DNA from: a phage
DNA: 64,000 bases
Sequence record: PZ296772.1
Strand: one strand, 5' to 3'
The position numbers and the translations under genes are program-made. Under the pieces are notes generated by a model that ran no database searches, was not told where the DNA came from, and worked only from the letters and a program-made list of their open reading frames with translations. Below are positions 840 through 59,066 of the stretch, one piece after another. The stretch's first letter is position 1. Every line of letters begins with the position of its first letter.

Positions 840-868
840 TGTACAACCAAGGATGGTTGGAGTATAAT
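840..868 (+). promoter_or_regulatory. sigma70-type early promoter
   Basis: tgtaca -35, 17-bp spacer caaccaaggatggttgg, tataat -10; 27 bp upstream of ORF 895. Confidence 0.6.
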
Positions 869-894
869 AAATTTTTCAACATGAGGAATATAAA

Positions 895-1854
895 ATGGCT
901 TTTATTACACGTAGAGAACTTATCAAAGAATTTACCTCGAACGCATATACTCCAGGACCTAATCCTATCCGTATGCCTGTAAAGACTCCTGAAGAGATTG
1001 AGGAAATCTGTTCATATTATGGGATTAATTCTCGTATGTTTACTCAATTTGAATGCGTTACTAACACACCCGTTAAAGAGTTCATTAAAAATGGTGAGTT
1101 CAGCCGTTTATTAGCCAAACAGAAACTTCGTAATTTTTGTATCGGCGGCTGCGGACAATATTTTGCTAAACAGTTCCGAAATAACCTTAACAATCTGATG
1201 GCCATTGCTTCTCGTATTCGTCCTCAAGCAATTAACATGAAACATTTGAAATATACTTACGATAAGTTAGAAATCATGGTTATCAGTGAGAATGAGTTCA
1301 CTCTTACATATAAACCTAAGAATGATAACGTTGCTCGTGTATTCCACCAAGCGCTAGAAGTGTTAGGCGATAATATCCATGAGATTAAAGCAATTTATTC
1401 TCGTGAGCTTAATATTATCGACCCTATCAAGAATAAGGGCCATATCGCTATCCAGGCTCGTGTATCTATTGGTAAAAAGGTTCCTGCGCCATGGTGGCAC
1501 AAAGACTCTGAATACTATCAAAATCTTAAAAAGGAAAATGCATTGTTTGAAGGCAATATTACAGCAACACCAGTCGGTAATGCAGAGGTTCTAGGCGCAT
1601 ATTCTCCAGCACAATCTGGTATGTTTAAAGGTTTGCCAAATGTGTGCAAACTGTCGGCAGTAAAACTAAATGTTTCTAATGACCTTCTTCCGGCAGAAGA
1701 TTATCATTACAACCAAATCAAGGCTACTGTAGACCAACTGTCCGTTGAACTTGACAAAGCACAAGCTAAGCTTCGTGATGCTCAAAGTGTTGTAACGAAT
1801 CTCCAGTTGCAGTATTCTAAACTTTTTAATGCAATGAATGCATTAAAATCATAA
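895..1854 (+). CDS. hypothetical early protein with C-terminal coiled-coil
   Basis: 319-aa ORF, own promoter and RBS, C-terminal heptad repeats. Confidence 0.55.
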   Translation: MAFITRRELIKEFTSNAYTPGPNPIRMPVKTPEEIEEICSYYGINSRMFTQFECVTNTPVKEFIKNGEFSRLLAKQKLRNFCIGGCGQYFAKQFRNNLNNLMAIASRIRPQAINMKHLKYTYDKLEIMVISENEFTLTYKPKNDNVARVFHQALEVLGDNIHEIKAIYSRELNIIDPIKNKGHIAIQARVSIGKKVPAPWWHKDSEYYQNLKKENALFEGNITATPVGNAEVLGAYSPAQSGMFKGLPNVCKLSAVKLNVSNDLLPAEDYHYNQIKATVDQLSVELDKAQAKLRDAQSVVTNLQLQYSKLFNAMNALKS

Positions 1855-1858
1855 AACG

Positions 1859-1888
1859 GTTTACAACCAAGGATGGTTGGAATATAAT
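1859..1888 (+). promoter_or_regulatory. sigma70-type early promoter
   Basis: gtttaca -35, same spacer ccaaggatggttgg, tataat -10. Confidence 0.6.
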
Positions 1889-2867: not shown

Positions 2868-3172
2868 TGAATCTACGTCTTCTAGAGGATATTGATATGA
2901 GCACTAATCATGGCTTAGTTAAGTTTATTGATGATAGTTCAAAGATTGAATTTGTTCAGCGAGATAAAATCCTCGGTGAAGAAGAGTTCGTTCCTCCGGC
3001 ATGGAACGAAATAATGAAAATGGTTGAACGACGTGAAAATGCTGCCAAATCGGCAGCAAAACATCCATGCCCAGAATGTGGAACTATCCAGGTCCAACTG
3101 GTTAACTGGACCACTGATAACTTGAAATTGAAATGCCGTAAATGCTTCCACAAATTTGAGAGAACAATATAA
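2867..3172 (+). CDS. small zinc-ribbon protein
   Basis: 101 aa; CPECG...CRKC four-Cys ribbon at C-terminus; start overlaps upstream stop. Confidence 0.5.
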   Translation: MNLRLLEDIDMSTNHGLVKFIDDSSKIEFVQRDKILGEEEFVPPAWNEIMKMVERRENAAKSAAKHPCPECGTIQVQLVNWTTDNLKLKCRKCFHKFERTI

Positions 3173-3585
3173 TGAGATATAGCCTTCGTTGTTTTATCGC
3201 AGCTTTAGTTTTTGCCATTATTCCATTCATTTGGAACAGCCAGAATACTTACATGGAAACTAAAGTAATTCCTGTGGAGGTAGTGGAATTAATCTCAGGC
3301 CAATCTACAGGAAAATATTCTAAATTAGAATTTATTGCAGTCTATAAAGATGAGCAAGGACGAGTTTTTGACAGGCATGTATCACCATCGTTTTATACGC
3401 TTCTGAATAAAGGTGATACGATAGCTATAGAAATTCGTGAGATGGATATTCAGCAAAATACTCGAGATAACATCATTTGGTTCTTTGGTACAGTGCTGAT
3501 GTTTTCTATCGGTATCACAGGTTTTATTACATGTATTGTATTTGGCATTGCATATTTAATCGATGAAAGGAAAAATAATGTTTAA
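3172..3585 (+). CDS. hypothetical membrane protein
   Basis: 137 aa; hydrophobic N-terminal and C-terminal segments. Confidence 0.5.
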   Translation: MRYSLRCFIAALVFAIIPFIWNSQNTYMETKVIPVEVVELISGQSTGKYSKLEFIAVYKDEQGRVFDRHVSPSFYTLLNKGDTIAIEIREMDIQQNTRDNIIWFFGTVLMFSIGITGFITCIVFGIAYLIDERKNNV

Positions 3586-3841
3586 AGTGTACGGGTATGA
3601 CTCTACTATTCATAAATGCATTTATTGTGATAATGCGAAACGATTGCTGACTGTTAAGAAACAGCCATTCGAATTCATTAATGTTATGCCAGAAAAAGGT
3701 GTGTTCGATGATGAGAAAATTGCTGAGCTTCTGGTTAAGCTTGGACGTGAATCACAAGTCGGATTGACTATGCCACAGATATTTGCTCCTGATGGAAGTC
3801 ATATTGGTGGATTTGACCAACTGCGAGAATATTTTAAATGA
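3578..3841 (+). CDS. nrdC: thioredoxin/glutaredoxin NrdC
   Basis: MFKVYGYDS...KCIYCDNAK CxxC motif; near-identical to T4 NrdC from memory; RBS aagga before ATG 3578. Confidence 0.9.
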   Translation: MFKVYGYDSTIHKCIYCDNAKRLLTVKKQPFEFINVMPEKGVFDDEKIAELLVKLGRESQVGLTMPQIFAPDGSHIGGFDQLREYFK

Positions 3842-4134
3842 GTATTGATTTAACTTTCCCGGGCTCTTATGACCAGGGTAAATTAGAAGCTTTGTTATAT
3901 CAAGAAATGTGTTCTCGTGCTAAGAACGATATCCAATATGCTATCGATAATCCATGGGGTGAATTTCGTATATTAATGGGTAATCGAATCATAGGTGTTC
4001 AATGGCGATTCGTTGGTCTTGAACCTGAAGACTACGAAGAAAACGAGCACGGTGACTGGATTCCTGTTGGTGAATATCACTGGGAATACGGTGGTCCTGA
4101 TTTCGAAGTTTCCTGTGCCTGGGTAGAACAATAA
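3838..4134 (+). CDS. hypothetical protein
   Basis: 98-aa ORF translationally coupled to nrdC. Confidence 0.5.
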   Translation: MSIDLTFPGSYDQGKLEALLYQEMCSRAKNDIQYAIDNPWGEFRILMGNRIIGVQWRFVGLEPEDYEENEHGDWIPVGEYHWEYGGPDFEVSCAWVEQ

Positions 4135-4152
4135 ACTGCGAGAATATTTTAA

Positions 4153-4509
4153 ATGACATATTCATTAAATCTTAAAGATTTCCAAGATGCATACGAAGTT
4201 TGTGTATCAGAGCTTGGTCCTGAATCTCCATCTATTATTGAAGTTTTAAATGTGCTCCCTTCATCATTAGCGTATGAAGCCAAATCATGGGGATGGAATG
4301 ATACTATTGTTCGTGATGACTTGTATGTCCTGATGAATGACATGATGGTTAAAAAGGCAGAACCGGTTGCACCAATGGTTACCATTACCGTTGAAGAATA
4401 TAATCGCCTGCAAGCCATTGAAGAGCTTCTGTGGAACATTGAATGTGACCTGCCGTCAGGGCTAGAATCCTGGATTGATTATGAAGAGCTCAATAAACTC
4501 CGGGGTTAA
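4153..4509 (+). CDS. hypothetical protein
   Basis: 118-aa acidic ORF. Confidence 0.5.
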   Translation: MTYSLNLKDFQDAYEVCVSELGPESPSIIEVLNVLPSSLAYEAKSWGWNDTIVRDDLYVLMNDMMVKKAEPVAPMVTITVEEYNRLQAIEELLWNIECDLPSGLESWIDYEELNKLRG

Positions 4510-5258: not shown

Positions 5259-5732
5259 ATGTTATTATCAGGCGCAAAATATAAAGAAGAAAAACAAAAA
5301 TTTTATGATGCACAGAATGGTAAGTGTCCTATTTGCCACCGTGAATTAGACCCTGATGTTCAAGGTAACCATCTTGACCACGACCATGAATTAAACGGGC
5401 CAAAAGCTGGTAAGGTTCGTGGTTTACTATGTAACCTGTGCAATGCAGCAGAAGGTCAAATGAAGCATAAGTTCAACCGTTCTGGTCTTAAAGGTCAAAA
5501 CGTTGATTACCTCGAATGGCTTGAAGCTCTTCTTGCTTATTTGAAACAAGATTATTCTGATAATAATATCCATCCTAATTTTGTTCCAGACAAAACTAAA
5601 GAGTTCTCAAGACTAGGTAAAGAGGAAATGATGACTGAGATGCTTCAAAGAGGATTTGAATATAATGAATCTGATACTAAAACACAATTAATAGCTTCAT
5701 TCAAAAAGCAGCTTAGAAAGAGTTTAAAATGA
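5259..5732 (+). CDS. 49: endonuclease VII (Holliday junction resolvase)
   Basis: 157 aa; CPICH...CNLC zinc cluster and HLDHDH motif matching T4 gp49 from memory. Confidence 0.9.
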   Translation: MLLSGAKYKEEKQKFYDAQNGKCPICHRELDPDVQGNHLDHDHELNGPKAGKVRGLLCNLCNAAEGQMKHKFNRSGLKGQNVDYLEWLEALLAYLKQDYSDNNIHPNFVPDKTKEFSRLGKEEMMTEMLQRGFEYNESDTKTQLIASFKKQLRKSLK

Positions 5733-9173: not shown

Positions 9174-9389
9174 ATGTATAAATTTCGTAAAGGTTTAGCT
9201 GATTTTCTTACAACTGTAACATTCTTTCTGTTTATGGCAGTTGGAGCTATTTTTCTTATTCCTTTTACTGGTGTATTTTTCGTGATTAGTTTAATTTCTC
9301 CAGAAAAGGGCTTATCTTCTAATGAGTTCAATGAGCGTCTGGATAAAATTACTAACAAACTGAATTCTGTTCTTGATAAAAAGGCTTAA
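9174..9389 (+). CDS. hypothetical membrane protein
   Basis: 71 aa with long hydrophobic helix. Confidence 0.5.
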   Translation: MYKFRKGLADFLTTVTFFLFMAVGAIFLIPFTGVFFVISLISPEKGLSSNEFNERLDKITNKLNSVLDKKA

Positions 9390-15315: not shown

Positions 15316-15541
15316 TTATAAAATCCATCGTCATGAATTTAGTATTGGTGACGGTTATATTGGTATCGTTGAATGGACTGAGAATTACGAGGAATCAACT
15401 CCTCGTTTCTTTGGAACAATGTATGTTACCTGTGAGTACGCACCAGGTGTTGTTATGTATGCAGAACTAGATGAATATTTTGCTGATAGAGATGACATGT
15501 TAAAATATGTAGAGGACTTCATTCGAAGAGAATACATATGA
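15293..15541 (+). CDS. hypothetical protein
   Basis: 82-aa ORF; ends overlapping gene 46 start. Confidence 0.5.
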   Translation: MRIMTKTDYKIHRHEFSIGDGYIGIVEWTENYEESTPRFFGTMYVTCEYAPGVVMYAELDEYFADRDDMLKYVEDFIRREYI

Positions 15542-17226
15542 AATCATTTAAATTAAATCGTGTTCGTTATCAAAACATCATGTCGGTAGGTGGGAATCCT
15601 ATTGATATCCAATTAGATAAAGTCCAAAAGACATTAATCACCGGTAAAAACGGCGGTGGTAAATCTACGATGTTAGAAGCCATTACTTTCGGACTTTTCG
15701 GTAAACCATTTCGTGATGTTAAGAAAGGACAAATCATTAACAGCACGAATAAGAAAGAGCTCTTAGTTGAGCTTTGGATGGAATTCGATGATAAAAAATA
15801 CTTCATTAAACGCGGCCAAAAGCCCAATATTTTCGAAATCTCCGTTGACGGTGTTCGTCTTGATGAATCTGCCAGCAGTCGGGACTTCCAAGAAGAATTT
15901 GAACGTAGCATCGGAATGTCATACGCGTCTTTTAAACAAATCGTTGTGCTTGGGACGGCAGGGTATACCCCTTTCATGGCTCTTAGCACCCCTGCTCGTA
16001 GAAAACTTGTCGAAGACCTTTTAGAAGTCGGCACACTCGCTGAAATGGATAAAATCAATAAGTCTCAAGTTCGAGAACTTAATTCCCAGGGACAAGTTCT
16101 AGATGCCAAGAAAGATGGTATTATCCAACAAATTAAGATTTATAACGAGAATATTGAACGTCAAAAGAAATTATCTGGTGATAATGTAGCGCGTCTACAG
16201 AATATGTATGACGATCTAGCCAAAGAAGCTCGTTCATTAAAAGCAGAAATCGAAGAAGCTAATGAGCGACTACTTAATATCGTTCTTGATGAAGACCCTA
16301 CTGAGGCATTCAACAAGATCGGACAAGAAGCATTCTTGATTAAATCTAAAATTGACTCATATAACAAAGTTATTAAGATGTATCATGATGGCGGTACATG
16401 TCCTACTTGTGCATCACAGTTGCACCAGGGTGATCCTATTGTCTCTAAGATTACCGATAAGCTTCACGAATGTAATCACTCATTCGAGCAACTTACATGT
16501 CACAGAGATAATCTGAGTGTCCTAGTGGACGAATATAGAGCTAATGTTAAGACTAAACAGGACCTTGCATCTGATATTCGTACCAAGAAACAAGCAATGA
16601 TTGCCACTATTGATAAAGCTAAGAAAGTTAAAGCTGCAATAGAGCAAGCCTCAGCAGAATTTATCGACCATGCTGATGAGATAGCTTTGCTTCAAAAAGA
16701 ACTTGATAAAATCATTAAAACAAAATCAGACATCGTTCTTGAAAAATACCATCGTGGTATTATCACAGATATGTTAAAAGATTCTGGTATTAAAGGTGCT
16801 ATCATTAAAAAATATGTGCCTTTGTTCAACAAGCAGATTAACCATTATCTTAAAATCATGGAAGCTGATTACGTGTTTTCTATTGACGAAGAATTCAATG
16901 AATCTATAAAATCACGTGGTCGTGAAGACTTTAGTTATGCTTCATTTAGTCAAGGTGAAAAGGCCCGTATCGATATCGCACTGTTGTTTACATGGCGAGA
17001 TATTGCTGAAAAGGTCTCTGGTGTTAAAATCAACACTCTGATTCTTGATGAGGTTTTTGATGGTGCTGTCGATTCTGAGGCTGTTAAGGCTATAGATACC
17101 ATCCTTGGTAGTTTACAAAATACTAATGTGTTCATTATCTCTCATCGAGATCATGACCCTCAACGTTATGGACAACATCTTCAAATGAGCAAAGTTGGAC
17201 GATTTACTGTAATGACTGTTTCATAA
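15538..17226 (+). CDS. 46: recombination nuclease subunit gp46 (Rad50/SbcC-like ATPase)
   Basis: 562 aa; Walker A GKNGGGKST, zinc hook CPTC, signature SFSQGEKARID, Walker B LILDEVFDG. Confidence 0.92.
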   Translation: MKSFKLNRVRYQNIMSVGGNPIDIQLDKVQKTLITGKNGGGKSTMLEAITFGLFGKPFRDVKKGQIINSTNKKELLVELWMEFDDKKYFIKRGQKPNIFEISVDGVRLDESASSRDFQEEFERSIGMSYASFKQIVVLGTAGYTPFMALSTPARRKLVEDLLEVGTLAEMDKINKSQVRELNSQGQVLDAKKDGIIQQIKIYNENIERQKKLSGDNVARLQNMYDDLAKEARSLKAEIEEANERLLNIVLDEDPTEAFNKIGQEAFLIKSKIDSYNKVIKMYHDGGTCPTCASQLHQGDPIVSKITDKLHECNHSFEQLTCHRDNLSVLVDEYRANVKTKQDLASDIRTKKQAMIATIDKAKKVKAAIEQASAEFIDHADEIALLQKELDKIIKTKSDIVLEKYHRGIITDMLKDSGIKGAIIKKYVPLFNKQINHYLKIMEADYVFSIDEEFNESIKSRGREDFSYASFSQGEKARIDIALLFTWRDIAEKVSGVKINTLILDEVFDGAVDSEAVKAIDTILGSLQNTNVFIISHRDHDPQRYGQHLQMSKVGRFTVMTVS

Positions 17227-35021: not shown

Positions 35022-35084
35022 ACTTGTTTACATTATAGATGGACTATAGTATAGTAGTCCTATCAAATCAACTAAGGAGTTAAA

Positions 35085-44906: not shown

Positions 44907-44936
44907 GTTTACAACCAAGGACGGTTGGAGTATAAT
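44907..44936 (+). promoter_or_regulatory. sigma70-type early promoter (conserved-spacer family)
   Basis: gtttaca, spacer ccaaggacggttgg, tataat. Confidence 0.6.
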
Positions 44937-44966: not shown

Positions 44967-45461
44967 ATGAATATCAATACTACGTCTACTTACATCCTGA
45001 AAGACGAAAAACAAATCAACTGGTACGGTGCTTCAGTGCGAGCTTATGAAAAGTTTTGTGAAATTTTAGGTGCCACTCAAGGTAATAGTTTCACTATTGT
45101 TAACTTCATTAAACAAGTTGAAGGCCCTTGGTTATTCTTAGAAATTAAAAATTCATACGGTACAATTTCTACTACTGCCATCCCAAGCACCGACTTTGAA
45201 CTGTTGATTGAAGAAGCACCTGTTAAAGATGGTCTCCACTTTGATATGGATATCGTTTGTATGTACGGTACTCTGATTAAGCCTATTGAGCCTACTGATT
45301 TATTGTGTAAATATGTTTCAATTCGACGCCCATTCGATGGTCCAGTAAATGGATGGGTAACTGACCAGTGGATTGAAGATGGGGTTGAACTTCTGAACGT
45401 TGTTCATGCCGGTGATTTTAGTGTGGTTCCACGTAGTGCAGTAGTTAATATTCTAAATTAA
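44967..45461 (+). CDS. paralogous family protein 1 (conserved C-terminal DQWxEDG domain)
   Basis: 164 aa; C-terminus GWVTDQWIEDGVELLNVVHAGDFSVVP. Confidence 0.55.
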   Translation: MNINTTSTYILKDEKQINWYGASVRAYEKFCEILGATQGNSFTIVNFIKQVEGPWLFLEIKNSYGTISTTAIPSTDFELLIEEAPVKDGLHFDMDIVCMYGTLIKPIEPTDLLCKYVSIRRPFDGPVNGWVTDQWIEDGVELLNVVHAGDFSVVPRSAVVNILN

Positions 45462-45463
45462 TG

Positions 45464-45493
45464 TTGTACATCCAAGGATGGATGGAGTATAAT
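45464..45493 (+). promoter_or_regulatory. sigma70-type early promoter (conserved-spacer family)
   Basis: ttgtaca, spacer tccaaggatggatgg, tataat. Confidence 0.6.
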
Positions 45494-45522: not shown

Positions 45523-45978
45523 ATGATTACTATTGGTGAAATTAAGCGTGTATCAACTGCATCCCGGTCTAAAGCCGCAGGTCGTCTGGTTGAAGTGGTA
45601 GGACTTCGCACAAATGGCATGGGACGCATTAAAGAAGTTAAAGTTCGAATCATTCCTAGTTTTGGACGTCAGGATACTCAGCACGCTTACGTAAGTCCTA
45701 AATTCTTGGAAACTCCTGTGAGCGCTCATTTTGCTTCTACTGAACCTAATGCACAGTTCAAATGGGCCTTGTGTAAAGGTGTTGAATTCCAGACTGATAA
45801 AGAATTTGACTTCATCGATGAATACGGTTATCCAAGCAAAACTGATACTATGTGTGGCTTCATTAGTGACCAATGGGTTGAAGATGGTGAAAAGTTATAC
45901 AATATCGTATTCTTAGGTGACTTCCGAGTTGTTAAAGAATCTGAAATCACTCGTTATGTGTCTCCTCGTAAAGCTTAA
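45523..45978 (+). CDS. paralogous family protein 2 (conserved C-terminal DQWxEDG domain)
   Basis: 151 aa; C-terminus GFISDQWVEDGEKLYNIVFLGDFRVV. Confidence 0.55.
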   Translation: MITIGEIKRVSTASRSKAAGRLVEVVGLRTNGMGRIKEVKVRIIPSFGRQDTQHAYVSPKFLETPVSAHFASTEPNAQFKWALCKGVEFQTDKEFDFIDEYGYPSKTDTMCGFISDQWVEDGEKLYNIVFLGDFRVVKESEITRYVSPRKA

Positions 45979-46411: not shown

Positions 46412-46460
46412 GTTTACTTCTCCTCCGGTTTTGATATTATAACCATATCAACCAGAGGAG
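46412..46460 (+). promoter_or_regulatory. early promoter with flanking imperfect stem-loop (PeSL-like)
   Basis: gtttac -35, tattat -10, arms tcctccggtt / aaccagagga. Confidence 0.55.
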
Positions 46461-46466
46461 AATAAT

Positions 46467-46991
46467 ATGTTAGTTTACCGCGTAGAACGTAGTTTTTGTA
46501 CTCAACGTGAATCATTACCAGGAATTGCTATCGAAGATGGTAAAGCCGTCAGAATTTGGGAAACCTCTTGGAATAAAGAACCTCGCTCACCATACGGTTG
46601 GTCAGGCACCGACAACTCTGAAGAAACATGGGAGTTCCTTGATAAACATGGAATACTCTCAGGTAACTTCTACCATCATGGCGACAACTATAATGTCCCT
46701 AATCGTCCTACAGTAAATGAAGACAAACTCCTTGAACAAAATATCTTAAGATACCATAGAATTGAGCACACATTTGAATTGAACGAAGATTGGGCTCAAG
46801 GGTTCTATTTTGGATTTGAAAGTGTTGACGCGGTTTATGCATGGTTTGATGACCAGGTGGATGTTGAACTCTTGAAAGCTAAAGGATACTACATCGCTGT
46901 CTATGAAGCACCCGATTTCATCCTCGGAAGTTGTCAATTAATGTTTAGACGTTCATTGGCAGAACAAGTTGATTTTATTTTGCTAAAATGA
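46467..46991 (+). CDS. hypothetical protein
   Basis: 174 aa; gaggag RBS. Confidence 0.5.
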   Translation: MLVYRVERSFCTQRESLPGIAIEDGKAVRIWETSWNKEPRSPYGWSGTDNSEETWEFLDKHGILSGNFYHHGDNYNVPNRPTVNEDKLLEQNILRYHRIEHTFELNEDWAQGFYFGFESVDAVYAWFDDQVDVELLKAKGYYIAVYEAPDFILGSCQLMFRRSLAEQVDFILLK

Positions 46992-47025
46992 TGTACAACA
47001 ACTATGGTCTATGATACTATAGACC
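46992..47025 (+). promoter_or_regulatory. early promoter with stem-loop (PeSL-like)
   Basis: tgtacaa -35; -10 gatact in loop of ggtctat / atagacc inverted repeat. Confidence 0.55.
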
Positions 47026-55618: not shown

Positions 55619-55656
55619 TGTTTACAACTAAGTAGGACTATGTTATAGTAGTCCTA
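55619..55656 (+). promoter_or_regulatory. early promoter with stem-loop (PeSL-like)
   Basis: gtttaca -35; perfect 8-bp inverted repeat taggacta / tagtccta around the -10 region. Confidence 0.6.
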
Positions 55657-56131: not shown

Positions 56132-56168
56132 GTTTACAACACAGTAGGATTATGGTATAGTAGTCCTA
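56132..56168 (+). promoter_or_regulatory. early promoter with stem-loop (PeSL-like)
   Basis: gtttaca -35; taggatta / tagtccta arms (one mismatch). Confidence 0.55.
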
Positions 56169-58699: not shown

Positions 58700-58746
58700 G
58701 TTTACATGTGCTTCAAACATGATATTATAGACCTATCAAAACAAAA
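58700..58746 (+). promoter_or_regulatory. early/middle hybrid promoter (duplicated cassette, copy 1)
   Basis: gtttaca, tgcttca MotA-box-like, tattat, agacctatcaaaacaaa leader. Confidence 0.55.
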
Positions 58747-59020: not shown

Positions 59021-59066
59021 GTTTACTTTTGCTTCAAACATGATATTATAGACCTATCAAAACAAA
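59021..59066 (+). promoter_or_regulatory. early/middle hybrid promoter for motA (duplicated cassette, copy 2)
   Basis: gtttac, tttgcttca, tattat, agacctatcaaaacaaa; preceded by gggct/agccc hairpin. Confidence 0.55.

Follow-up and report, generated by a model that had tools for sequence, protein, structure and literature searches.

Repeated early-type promoters flank single accessory genes and coincide with the crossover points of their loss in RB69-like T4-type phages

The window analysed here, the whole 64,000-nucleotide (nt) stretch of the phage sequence record PZ296772.1, carries four near-identical copies of an early-type promoter (P1–P4), arranged in two pairs that each flank a single accessory gene of ∼0.5–1 kb at their own locus; in natural relatives lacking one of these genes, a hybrid promoter lies exactly where the gene is missing. 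Over its first 6 kb, the window is 95–96% identical to Mosigvirus (RB69-like) phages, T4-like phages being more distant, and by this likeness it is assigned to Mosigvirus, that is, to the RB69-like T4-type phages. Its + strand is the direction of early transcription. Gene names at both loci were taken from the RB69 annotation, and the order is nrdC.6-P1-nrdC.5-P2-nrdC.3 at locus 1 and dexA-P3-motB.1-P4-motB-family gene at locus 2:

3–839, + strand: nrdC.6, 5′ end cut by the window, stop codon abutting the -35 of P1
840–868, + strand: P1, putative early promoter TGTACA-17-TATAAT in the nrdC.6/nrdC.5 gap (RB69 orthologue Pe:52042)
895–1854, + strand: nrdC.5 homologue (DUF7235), cassette gene between P1 and P2, missing in ∼20 Mosigvirus isolates
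1860–1888, + strand: P2, putative early promoter TTTACA-17-TATAAT in the nrdC.5/nrdC.3 gap (RB69 orthologue Pe:51019)
1917–2867, + strand: nrdC.3, downstream of P2
44224–44901, + strand: dexA exonuclease gene, upstream of P3
44908–44936, + strand: P3, putative early promoter in the gap between dexA and the motB.1 homologue (RB69 orthologue Pe:8947)
44967–45461, + strand: motB.1 homologue, cassette gene between P3 and P4, missing in at least five isolates
45465–45493, + strand: P4, putative early promoter TGTACA-17-TATAAT with CATCCA/TGGATG arms, in the gap between motB.1 and the motB-family gene (RB69 orthologue Pe:8387)
45523–45978, + strand: motB-family gene, downstream of P4 (Pfam motB, E 4e-36)

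Each promoter occupies an intergenic gap of 55–65 nt, in which a stop codon is followed after 0–6 nt by the -35 and -10 hexamers and, another 26–33 nt on, by the ATG. The 44 kb between the two loci hold essential replication genes (of the gp46/47, gp44, gp43, UvsX, and gp41 types), so that crossing over from one locus to the other would kill the phage; the sole links between them are short conversion-like patches. A preliminary description of this DNA, made from the sequence alone, had the promoters bounding gene modules 44 kb apart, which has to be given up, as each pair flanks one accessory gene.

The consensus of the copies, the 29-nt TTTACAACCAAGGATGGTTGGAGTATAAT, was searched in the window and in 100 dinucleotide-preserving shuffles of it. 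It matched at 840–868, 1860–1888, and 44908–44936 (one mismatch each) and at 45465–45493 (three mismatches), all on the + strand, and nowhere in the shuffles, which bears out the claim of a near-identical family of four. Of the starts originally assigned, 840 was right, and 1859, 44907, and 45464 each have to be raised by one base. Exact matches to the 14-nt spacer string ccaaggatggttgg lie at 847 and 1867, and matches with one mismatch at 44915 and 45472, against a chance expectation of 0.16 matches with up to two mismatches. Likeness among the copies reaches ∼60 nt, past the 29-nt core (repeat family D3): P1 and P4 have the TGTACA -35 and ∼25 nt upstream of it in common, P2 and P3 have TCTATCTTAAC in the 5′ untranslated region (5′-UTR), P2 and P4 have TATAATGAAT, and parts of the 5′-UTR are common to P2, P3, and P4. 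Arranged as direct repeats, the copies have between them 11–27 nt of uninterrupted identity. Searched across two relatives with genomes of ∼170 kb, the motif was found four times in one and three times in the other, where the fourth copy has a TATAGT -10 outside the search pattern; the family has four members per genome, at two loci. Elsewhere in the window, positions 5646–5672 (CAAAGAGGATTTGAATATAATGAATCT) are 85% identical to the right half of P2, perhaps by chance, perhaps as what is left of a promoter.

That the four sites are promoters, as first proposed, agrees at the sequence level with their sigma-70 scores, their placement and orientation in the gaps, and predictions made for RB69. 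They are the top sigma-70 matches in both 6-kb surroundings, with 10–11 of 12 hexamer positions and a 17-nt spacer. All four have the features of a T4-type early promoter (Pe), namely, a GTTTAC-like -35, a spacer within 16–18 nt, a TATAAT-like -10, and an A-rich upstream region, and they lie directly upstream of, and oriented with, orthologues of early genes (nrdC.5, nrdC.3, motB.1, and motB). The RB69 orthologues of all four, under the Pe numbers given above, are contained in the early-promoter list derived by Nolan et al. (2006) with a hidden Markov model (PMC1524935, supplement). Different from T4-type Pe, they are without the TGn of an extended -10 and contain a palindromic spacer not seen in the other early promoters of the window; the ∼15 other early-type promoters on the + strand have unrelated spacers, and P1–P4 thus appear as a distinct early-promoter subfamily. 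Scans of both 6-kb surroundings detected no terminator-like site upstream of any copy. The T4 records AF158101 and NC_000866 contain coding sequence features only and no promoter annotation, and no published start-site or transcriptome data were found for RB69-type phages. A further early promoter, of the canonical T4 type (TTTACG-17-TATAAT with TGn), is predicted at 2840–2868, at the end of nrdC.3; downstream of it, TATAATGAATCTA resembles the same region of P2 and P4, and nrdC.2 may start at 2898 rather than 2867, as annotated in one relative.

When flanking gene content was compared across related phages, absences of single genes coincided with the promoter copies. In the metagenome contig L086, the 3′ end of nrdC.6 is followed by one promoter and the 5′ end of nrdC.3, without nrdC.5; in the alignment, this promoter follows P1 upstream of and throughout the core, and P2 downstream of the -10. 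A 171-nt nrdC.6-hybrid-nrdC.3 junction is contiguous in 21 GenBank phage records (94–100% identity) and one metagenome contig, and RB69-type genomes match just 75% of this query. The records lacking nrdC.5 include p000v, WFK, WFL6982, AV109/110/114-116/118, G2285, G2469, JM10, and JM17, as well as FL18, FL31, F27, F2, PTE-Eco05, and ESCO47; the annotation of p000v lists nrdC.8, nrdC.6, nrdC.3, and nrdC.2, again without nrdC.5. In ESCO47 (locus L105, 165–193), the hybrid promoter contains a chimeric inverted repeat, CAACCA...CGGATG, with broken complementarity, and judged from this sequence the crossover fell within the loop between two arm variants.

At locus 2, the loss of motB.1 is seen in the same way. 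The junction of dexA, a P3/P4 hybrid, and motB is contiguous in the phages PTK, VIPECOMC06, ST2, NHEP36, and phi25-307 and in metagenome contig L083. PTK, ST2, and L083 have kept the hairpin of the P3 type, placing the crossover to the right of it, within GGAGTATAAT, while NHEP36 and phi25-307 combine P3 upstream sequence with a hairpin of the P4 type, placing the crossover to its left. These two crossover classes, on either side of the variable pair of the hairpin, mean that motB.1 was lost at least twice independently. The metagenome scan for the motif yielded only 10 loci, two of which are these key recombinants (L083 and L086), and the search for loci related by NrdC.3 yielded only four. 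The preliminary suggestion that the copies are sites of homologous recombination and module exchange is strongly supported by these hybrid promoters in natural isolates.

Comparison with T4 extends the picture. There, the order is nrdC.5-[GTTTACTTTGCCACAAGGATGTGGTATAAT]-nrdC.4-[TTAAAGCCAAGGATGGCTCGGAGTATAAA]-nrdC.3, that is, an extra gene, nrdC.4, lies between two related copies; Mosigvirus has one copy at this position and no nrdC.4, and T4 has no promoter between nrdC.6 and nrdC.5. In the motB promoter region of T4 (L002 ∼3160–3225, minus strand), a full early promoter is followed by a second, remnant one, GGAGTATAAA, which aligns with P4 and looks like the scar of a promoter replacement by recombination near the -10. 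The motB.2 gene, which is accompanied by a promoter of its own, TTTACTTC(T)CCTC..., follows the motB paralogues in Mosigvirus but stands between dexA and motB.1 in T4, and looks like a relocated promoter-plus-gene cassette:

46413–46440 and 46467–46991 of the window: motB.2 promoter/gene
3662–4226 of T4 locus L002, minus strand: motB.2 promoter/gene

Since the bracketed genes or their neighbours are present in T4 as well as in Dhakavirus, the absences in Mosigvirus are most simply explained as deletions. The same type of loss occurs at an unrelated pair of early-type promoters, 58701–58729 and 59022–59050, which are 91% identical over 55 nt and flank a cassette of 321 bp that lies between gene 52 and motA; in many Mosigvirus isolates, the match to this region is split in two and spans ∼682–686 bp instead of 1001, so that the cassette is missing. 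A tandem gene duplication as the source of P1 and P2 was considered and rejected, with no similarity between NrdC.5 and NrdC.3 or between NrdC.6 and NrdC.5. The genes downstream of P3 and P4 have only a MotB-like C-terminal part of 36 residues in common, and NrdC.3 and T4 NrdC.4 are weak paralogues.

Traces of exchange without gene loss were also observed. Immediately behind the -10, P2 of RB69 has the CTT of P3 in place of GAA, a conversion-like patch, and identical T/C and G/A polymorphisms turn up in more than one copy.

The inverted repeat in the spacer, initially described as caacc/ggttg, is present in this form at P1 and P2 but is longer, with a 6-bp stem and a 4-nt loop, and P4 has CATCCA/TGGATG in its place:

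844–859, + strand: spacer inverted repeat in P1, CAACCA-AGGA-TGGTTG; -6.9 kcal/mol as RNA; supported by covariation
1864–1879, + strand: spacer inverted repeat in P2, CAACCA-AGGA-TGGTTG; supported by inverted-repeat search, folding, and covariation
44912–44927, + strand: spacer inverted repeat in P3, loop-closing base changed (T>C), leaving a 5-bp stem and a 6-nt loop
45469–45484, + strand: spacer inverted repeat in P4, CATCCA-AGGA-TGGATG; compensatory double change of A-T to T-A

Among 10–11 Mosigvirus genomes, the spacer is as conserved as the hexamers and two- to threefold more than the flanks, in line with the earlier notion that its conservation goes beyond the need of a promoter. Variable alignment columns numbered 8 of 116 in the 29-nt core, 21 of 162 in the 40 nt upstream, 29 of 118 in the 5′-UTRs, and 64 of 306 in the first 75 nt of the genes; counted by hand, ∼5 of 68 positions varied in the 17-nt spacer and ∼3 of 48 in the hexamers. 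At P4, the -10 is polymorphic among strains (TATAAT, TATAGT, or TATAAA), with the hairpin intact. In related copies, the AGGA loop and the complementarity of the arms are kept while the arm sequence differs. The CATCCA/TGGATG arms recur in the nrdC.4 promoter of JS10/IME341/VR5-type phages; in T4, the arms are CCACA/TGTGG at PnrdC.4, AGCCA/TGGCT in a remnant upstream of nrdC.3, and ATACCA/TGGTAT at PnrdC.7. The RB69 equivalent of the latter (L003 ∼950–985, upstream of nrdC.6) reads ACCC-AAGGAC-GGGT, with ACCC/GGGT arms, and this hairpin-bearing site is absent from the published RB69 middle-promoter list.

Across nine distinct variants, 87% of the cells are paired, compared with 64% in shuffles and 15–39% in slid controls. 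Double-sided changes occur in four of the six stem pairs, and one pair shows AU, UA, CG, and GC. The search patterns partly predetermined the inner C-G pairs and left the outer three free. Folded as RNA, seven variants all gave the same hairpin (-4.9 to -8.2 kcal/mol). The distance between hairpin and -10 ranges from overlap up to 5 nt. As the arms covary, the conserved loop is asymmetric, and the position is variable, a hairpin in a single strand is favoured over an operator in duplex DNA. Lying upstream of the start site, the element would be present in read-through RNA only, and none of the copies has a terminator before it. An intrinsic terminator it does not resemble: the 6-bp stem (three G-C) is followed by GAGUAUAAU, with no U run, and the element does not appear in the terminator scan. 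Across the whole window, Rfam 15 gave no match at the gathering score. An IMG/VR scan with free arms (TACA-N4-AGGA-N4-TG-N3-TATAAT) returned 73 loci, of which only T4-like contigs had complementary arms, in just two variants, which added little covariation.

A search of the window for AGGA-loop hairpins found one more, at 17097–17110 on the minus strand, a perfect TACCA-AGGA-TGGTA with arms as in T4 PnrdC.7; it lies antisense in the gp46-like open reading frame (ORF) 15538–17226, has no adjacent -10, and is probably due to chance. A palindrome of another kind, around the -10 rather than in the spacer, is embedded in the early-type promoters at 55621–55649, 56133–56161, 35027–35055, and 46992–47020 (AGGACTA...TAGTCCT, GGTCTAT...ATAGACC), and the T4 motB promoter likewise has GGGACC...GGTCCC around its -10.

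From this evidence, P1–P4 are very probably a subfamily of sigma-70-type immediate-early promoters at which crossovers between direct repeats drop or insert single genes, and in which the inverted repeat of the spacer is kept complementary. Each copy would be part of an intergenic cassette of ∼60 nt, consisting of an A-rich upstream region, a -35 (T(T/G)TACA), a 17-nt spacer, a TATAAT -10, a short 5′-UTR, a Shine-Dalgarno sequence, and the ATG, and would presumably drive early expression of a non-essential gene (nrdC.5, nrdC.3, motB.1, or motB). We infer both this early firing and the enzymology of the exchange. The 11–27 nt of identity could serve the very active homologous and microhomology recombination of the phage as crossover points; a crossover within a pair would delete the gene between the copies and leave one hybrid, complete promoter, and the reverse reaction would insert a gene. 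With the crossover falling inside the promoter, the downstream gene would always be left with a complete one. If a circle of gene plus promoter integrated at a resident copy, this would account for the closest relative of a promoter being its neighbour, and non-crossover exchange (gene conversion), also across the 44 kb, together with selection for promoter function, may keep the copies near-identical. The spacer repeat, with its stem of 5–6 bp and its AGGA loop, would most likely act as a hairpin in a single strand, for example, in RNA reading through from upstream promoters.

Several observations weigh against this interpretation. The early-promoter status of P1–P4 derives from their sequence and the 2006 prediction, and all four copies are devoid of TGn, the -10 being preceded by GGAG or GGAA; TGn is present in most, not all, T4 early promoters (Hinton, 2010; PMC2988021). 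Independent deletion events are established for motB.1, where there are two, whereas the ∼20 isolates lacking nrdC.5 could stem from few events. With regard to the hairpin, the nine distinct variants are a small set, gathered by eye around CAAGGAYG motifs. Folding in an 81-nt context was no better than that of shuffles (z -0.97 to +0.51), with the hairpin predicted in three of four cases, and stems are broken in viable phages, namely, in ESCO47 and in the T4-like remnant L091. Rather than in selection, the covariation could also have its source in the correction of quasi-palindromes from a template as DNA is replicated, which was first proposed on the basis of T4 rII data.

This last point leads to the possible, if rather unlikely, explanation that the spacer holds no information beyond the hexamers, the copies being of recent duplication and held similar by gene conversion, and mutation bias preserving the palindrome. 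Polymorphisms are indeed common to paralogues: P1, P3, P4, and the copy of Dhakavirus have T/C at one and the same loop-closing site, P2 and P4 have G/A at -13, and the patch in RB69 P2 fits as well. Chimeric and broken hairpins occur in viable phages, and a cassette that integrates by homology will inevitably end up between two similar promoters. Against such neutrality, the non-coding flanks next to the spacer vary two to three times as much as the spacer itself in these genomes, and complementarity is kept, despite divergence of sequence and position, in three genera and two promoter classes.

Somewhat less probable, and unlikely on balance, is that the hairpin, together with the GGAG beside it, acts as a signal in RNA, present on read-through transcripts only, either for processing or decay of the RegB/S1 type (cleavage falling at GGA|U of the loop or else at GGAG UAUAAU) or for stabilisation of the 3′ end of the upstream cistron. 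If so, polycistronic RNA would be handled differently from RNA initiated at the promoters. The like folding of the seven variants, the covariation, the intact P4 hairpin beside a varying -10, and the expected presence of the element in read-through RNA, no terminator preceding any copy, are all consistent with this idea. RegB cuts GGAG/U in intergenic early RNA and, on its own, has a preference for GGA that is unpaired and followed by a constrained fourth base; the consensus of strong sites is GGAGRAYARAA (PMC3014915), to which GGAGUAUAAU(A) is a partial match. Compared with this consensus, the hairpin loop offers GGAU, and GGAGUAUAAU appears to fit 4–5 of the 7 downstream positions in P1, P3, and P4. 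The resemblance is, however, one of motifs, and P2 of the window has GGAA instead of GGAG. In addition, with the frequent T>C change, A and C are mismatched in the sense strand (in the antisense strand, a G-U pair would form), the T4 remnant upstream of nrdC.3 is further decayed in a relative, and Rfam detected nothing. The broader proposal that the AGGA-loop hairpin is a functional, strand-specific element, selected across three Tevenvirinae genera and two promoter classes and marking only read-through transcripts or single-stranded DNA for different processing, decay, or stabilisation of polycistronic RNA, for example, by RegB/S1 cleavage at GGA|U or GGAG, is distinctly unlikely when judged from the sequences.

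Still more doubtful is the idea of the preliminary description that the spacer binds a regulator. The palindrome would then be an operator in duplex DNA, at which a dimeric phage or host protein recognising CAACCA-N4-TGGTTG co-regulates the four promoters. An element with dyad symmetry, conserved as strongly as the hexamers in the 10–11 genomes, would suit this role; autoregulation is conceivable, as P3 and P4 drive genes for DNA-binding proteins of the MotB family, and the way in which early transcription is turned off in T4 is not fully understood (PMC2988021). T4 MotB, however, binds DNA non-specifically (PMC6070864), and the covarying arms, with all four Watson-Crick pairs at one position, provide no fixed recognition sequence. 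Furthermore, the conserved centre AGGA is not symmetric, the element is found in just 4 of ∼58 early promoters, and in T4 it lies 0–5 nt from the -10 or overlaps it, in an early and in a middle promoter, so that its geometry relative to RNA polymerase is not fixed.

That the hairpin is a structure-specific recombination signal (single-stranded or cruciform), like integron attC or the stem-loop of promoter early stem-loops (PeSLs), is scarcely credible: cassette indels do end within the elements, but the crossovers fall at varied places (left of the hairpin, right of it in GGAGTATAAT, and in the loop), as in homology-driven exchange anywhere in an identity tract, the 58701/59022 pair shows the same cassette loss without this hairpin, and a 6-bp stem is too short for extrusion from duplex DNA. 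In its favour, Arbiol et al. raised site-specific recombination for PeSLs, with the stem-loop perhaps binding a recombination protein (PMC2839356).

The exchange of single genes at repeated promoters, as preferred here, may be of consequence for phage defence. T4 NrdC.5 counteracts the sirtuin defence system Dsr1 (PMC9391042), and the nrdC.5 product of the window (DUF7235) is a distant homologue of it, with 25% identity. The repeats may therefore be hinges for swapping a counter-defence gene in and out of circulating coliphages of the therapeutic type. They would provide a clean natural example, resolved at the sequence level, of accessory genes being gained and lost one at a time by T4-type phages with the expression of the neighbours undisturbed. 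Promoter-mediated modular shuffling of the PeSL kind and, since 2006, the prediction of the promoters themselves are already known; new are the promoter-only variant, the Mosigvirus losses of the nrdC.5 and motB.1 cassettes with resolved, independent crossover points, the link to a family of anti-defence genes, and the covarying spacer hairpin, which is common also to a mapped T4 middle promoter.

This middle promoter is PnrdC.7 of T4 (L001 ∼9320–9350, minus strand), the start of which was mapped to 53325 (Hinton, 2010, Table 1; PMC2988021), 7 nt downstream of the -10 that lies beside the hairpin. It has the same CCA-AGGA-TGG core (in ATACCA-AGGA-TGGTAT) as P1–P4, directly upstream of and overlapping the -10. 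In contrast to P1–P4, it has a MotA-box-like GCTTTA in place of the -35 and thus belongs to another promoter class, and its hairpin is several bases nearer to the -10. The Mosigvirus equivalent is located upstream of nrdC.6, outside the window.

The closest known systems are the PeSLs (PMC2839356, PMC4122927). Like these, P1–P4 are repeated promoters of the sigma-70 type, as judged by sequence, with flanks conserved up to the Shine-Dalgarno sequence and the ATG, and they lie between small non-essential ORFs of hyperplastic regions, here the nrdC.x and dexA-motB regions, where both bracketed genes, nrdC.5 and motB.1, are dispensable in nature. For PeSLs, the indels between RB49 and phi1, PST and T4, and nt-1 and KVP40 end in repeated early-promoter cassettes, and excised mini-circles having their crossovers between the -10 and the ATG were described (PMC2839356, PMC4122927); likewise, indels between close relatives of the present phage end inside the elements, with crossovers near the -10 and one hybrid element remaining. 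The nrdC region of T4 and PST had already been flagged as rich in intact and degraded PeSLs, and no mention of the Mosigvirus nrdC.5, motB.1, and 52|motA cases or of the spacer hairpin was found in this literature (PMC2839356, PMC4122927). Unlike PeSLs, P1–P4 are without the upstream stem-loop/terminator that is a defining feature of that class, and their sole inverted repeat, with its 6-bp stem and AGGA loop and no U run after it, sits inside the spacer between -35 and -10. They are a promoter-only variant that works like a PeSL, not a strict member of the class. Laboratory T4 undergoes deletions of 0.7–6 kb between short homologies or microhomologies (Srikant et al, 2022; PMC9391042). As here, non-essential early genes are lost via short direct repeats, nrdC.5 being among the affected accessory anti-defence genes. 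However, the repeats there are arbitrary and 6–10 bp long, whereas here they are copies of what appear to be functional promoters, and every product retains a complete one.

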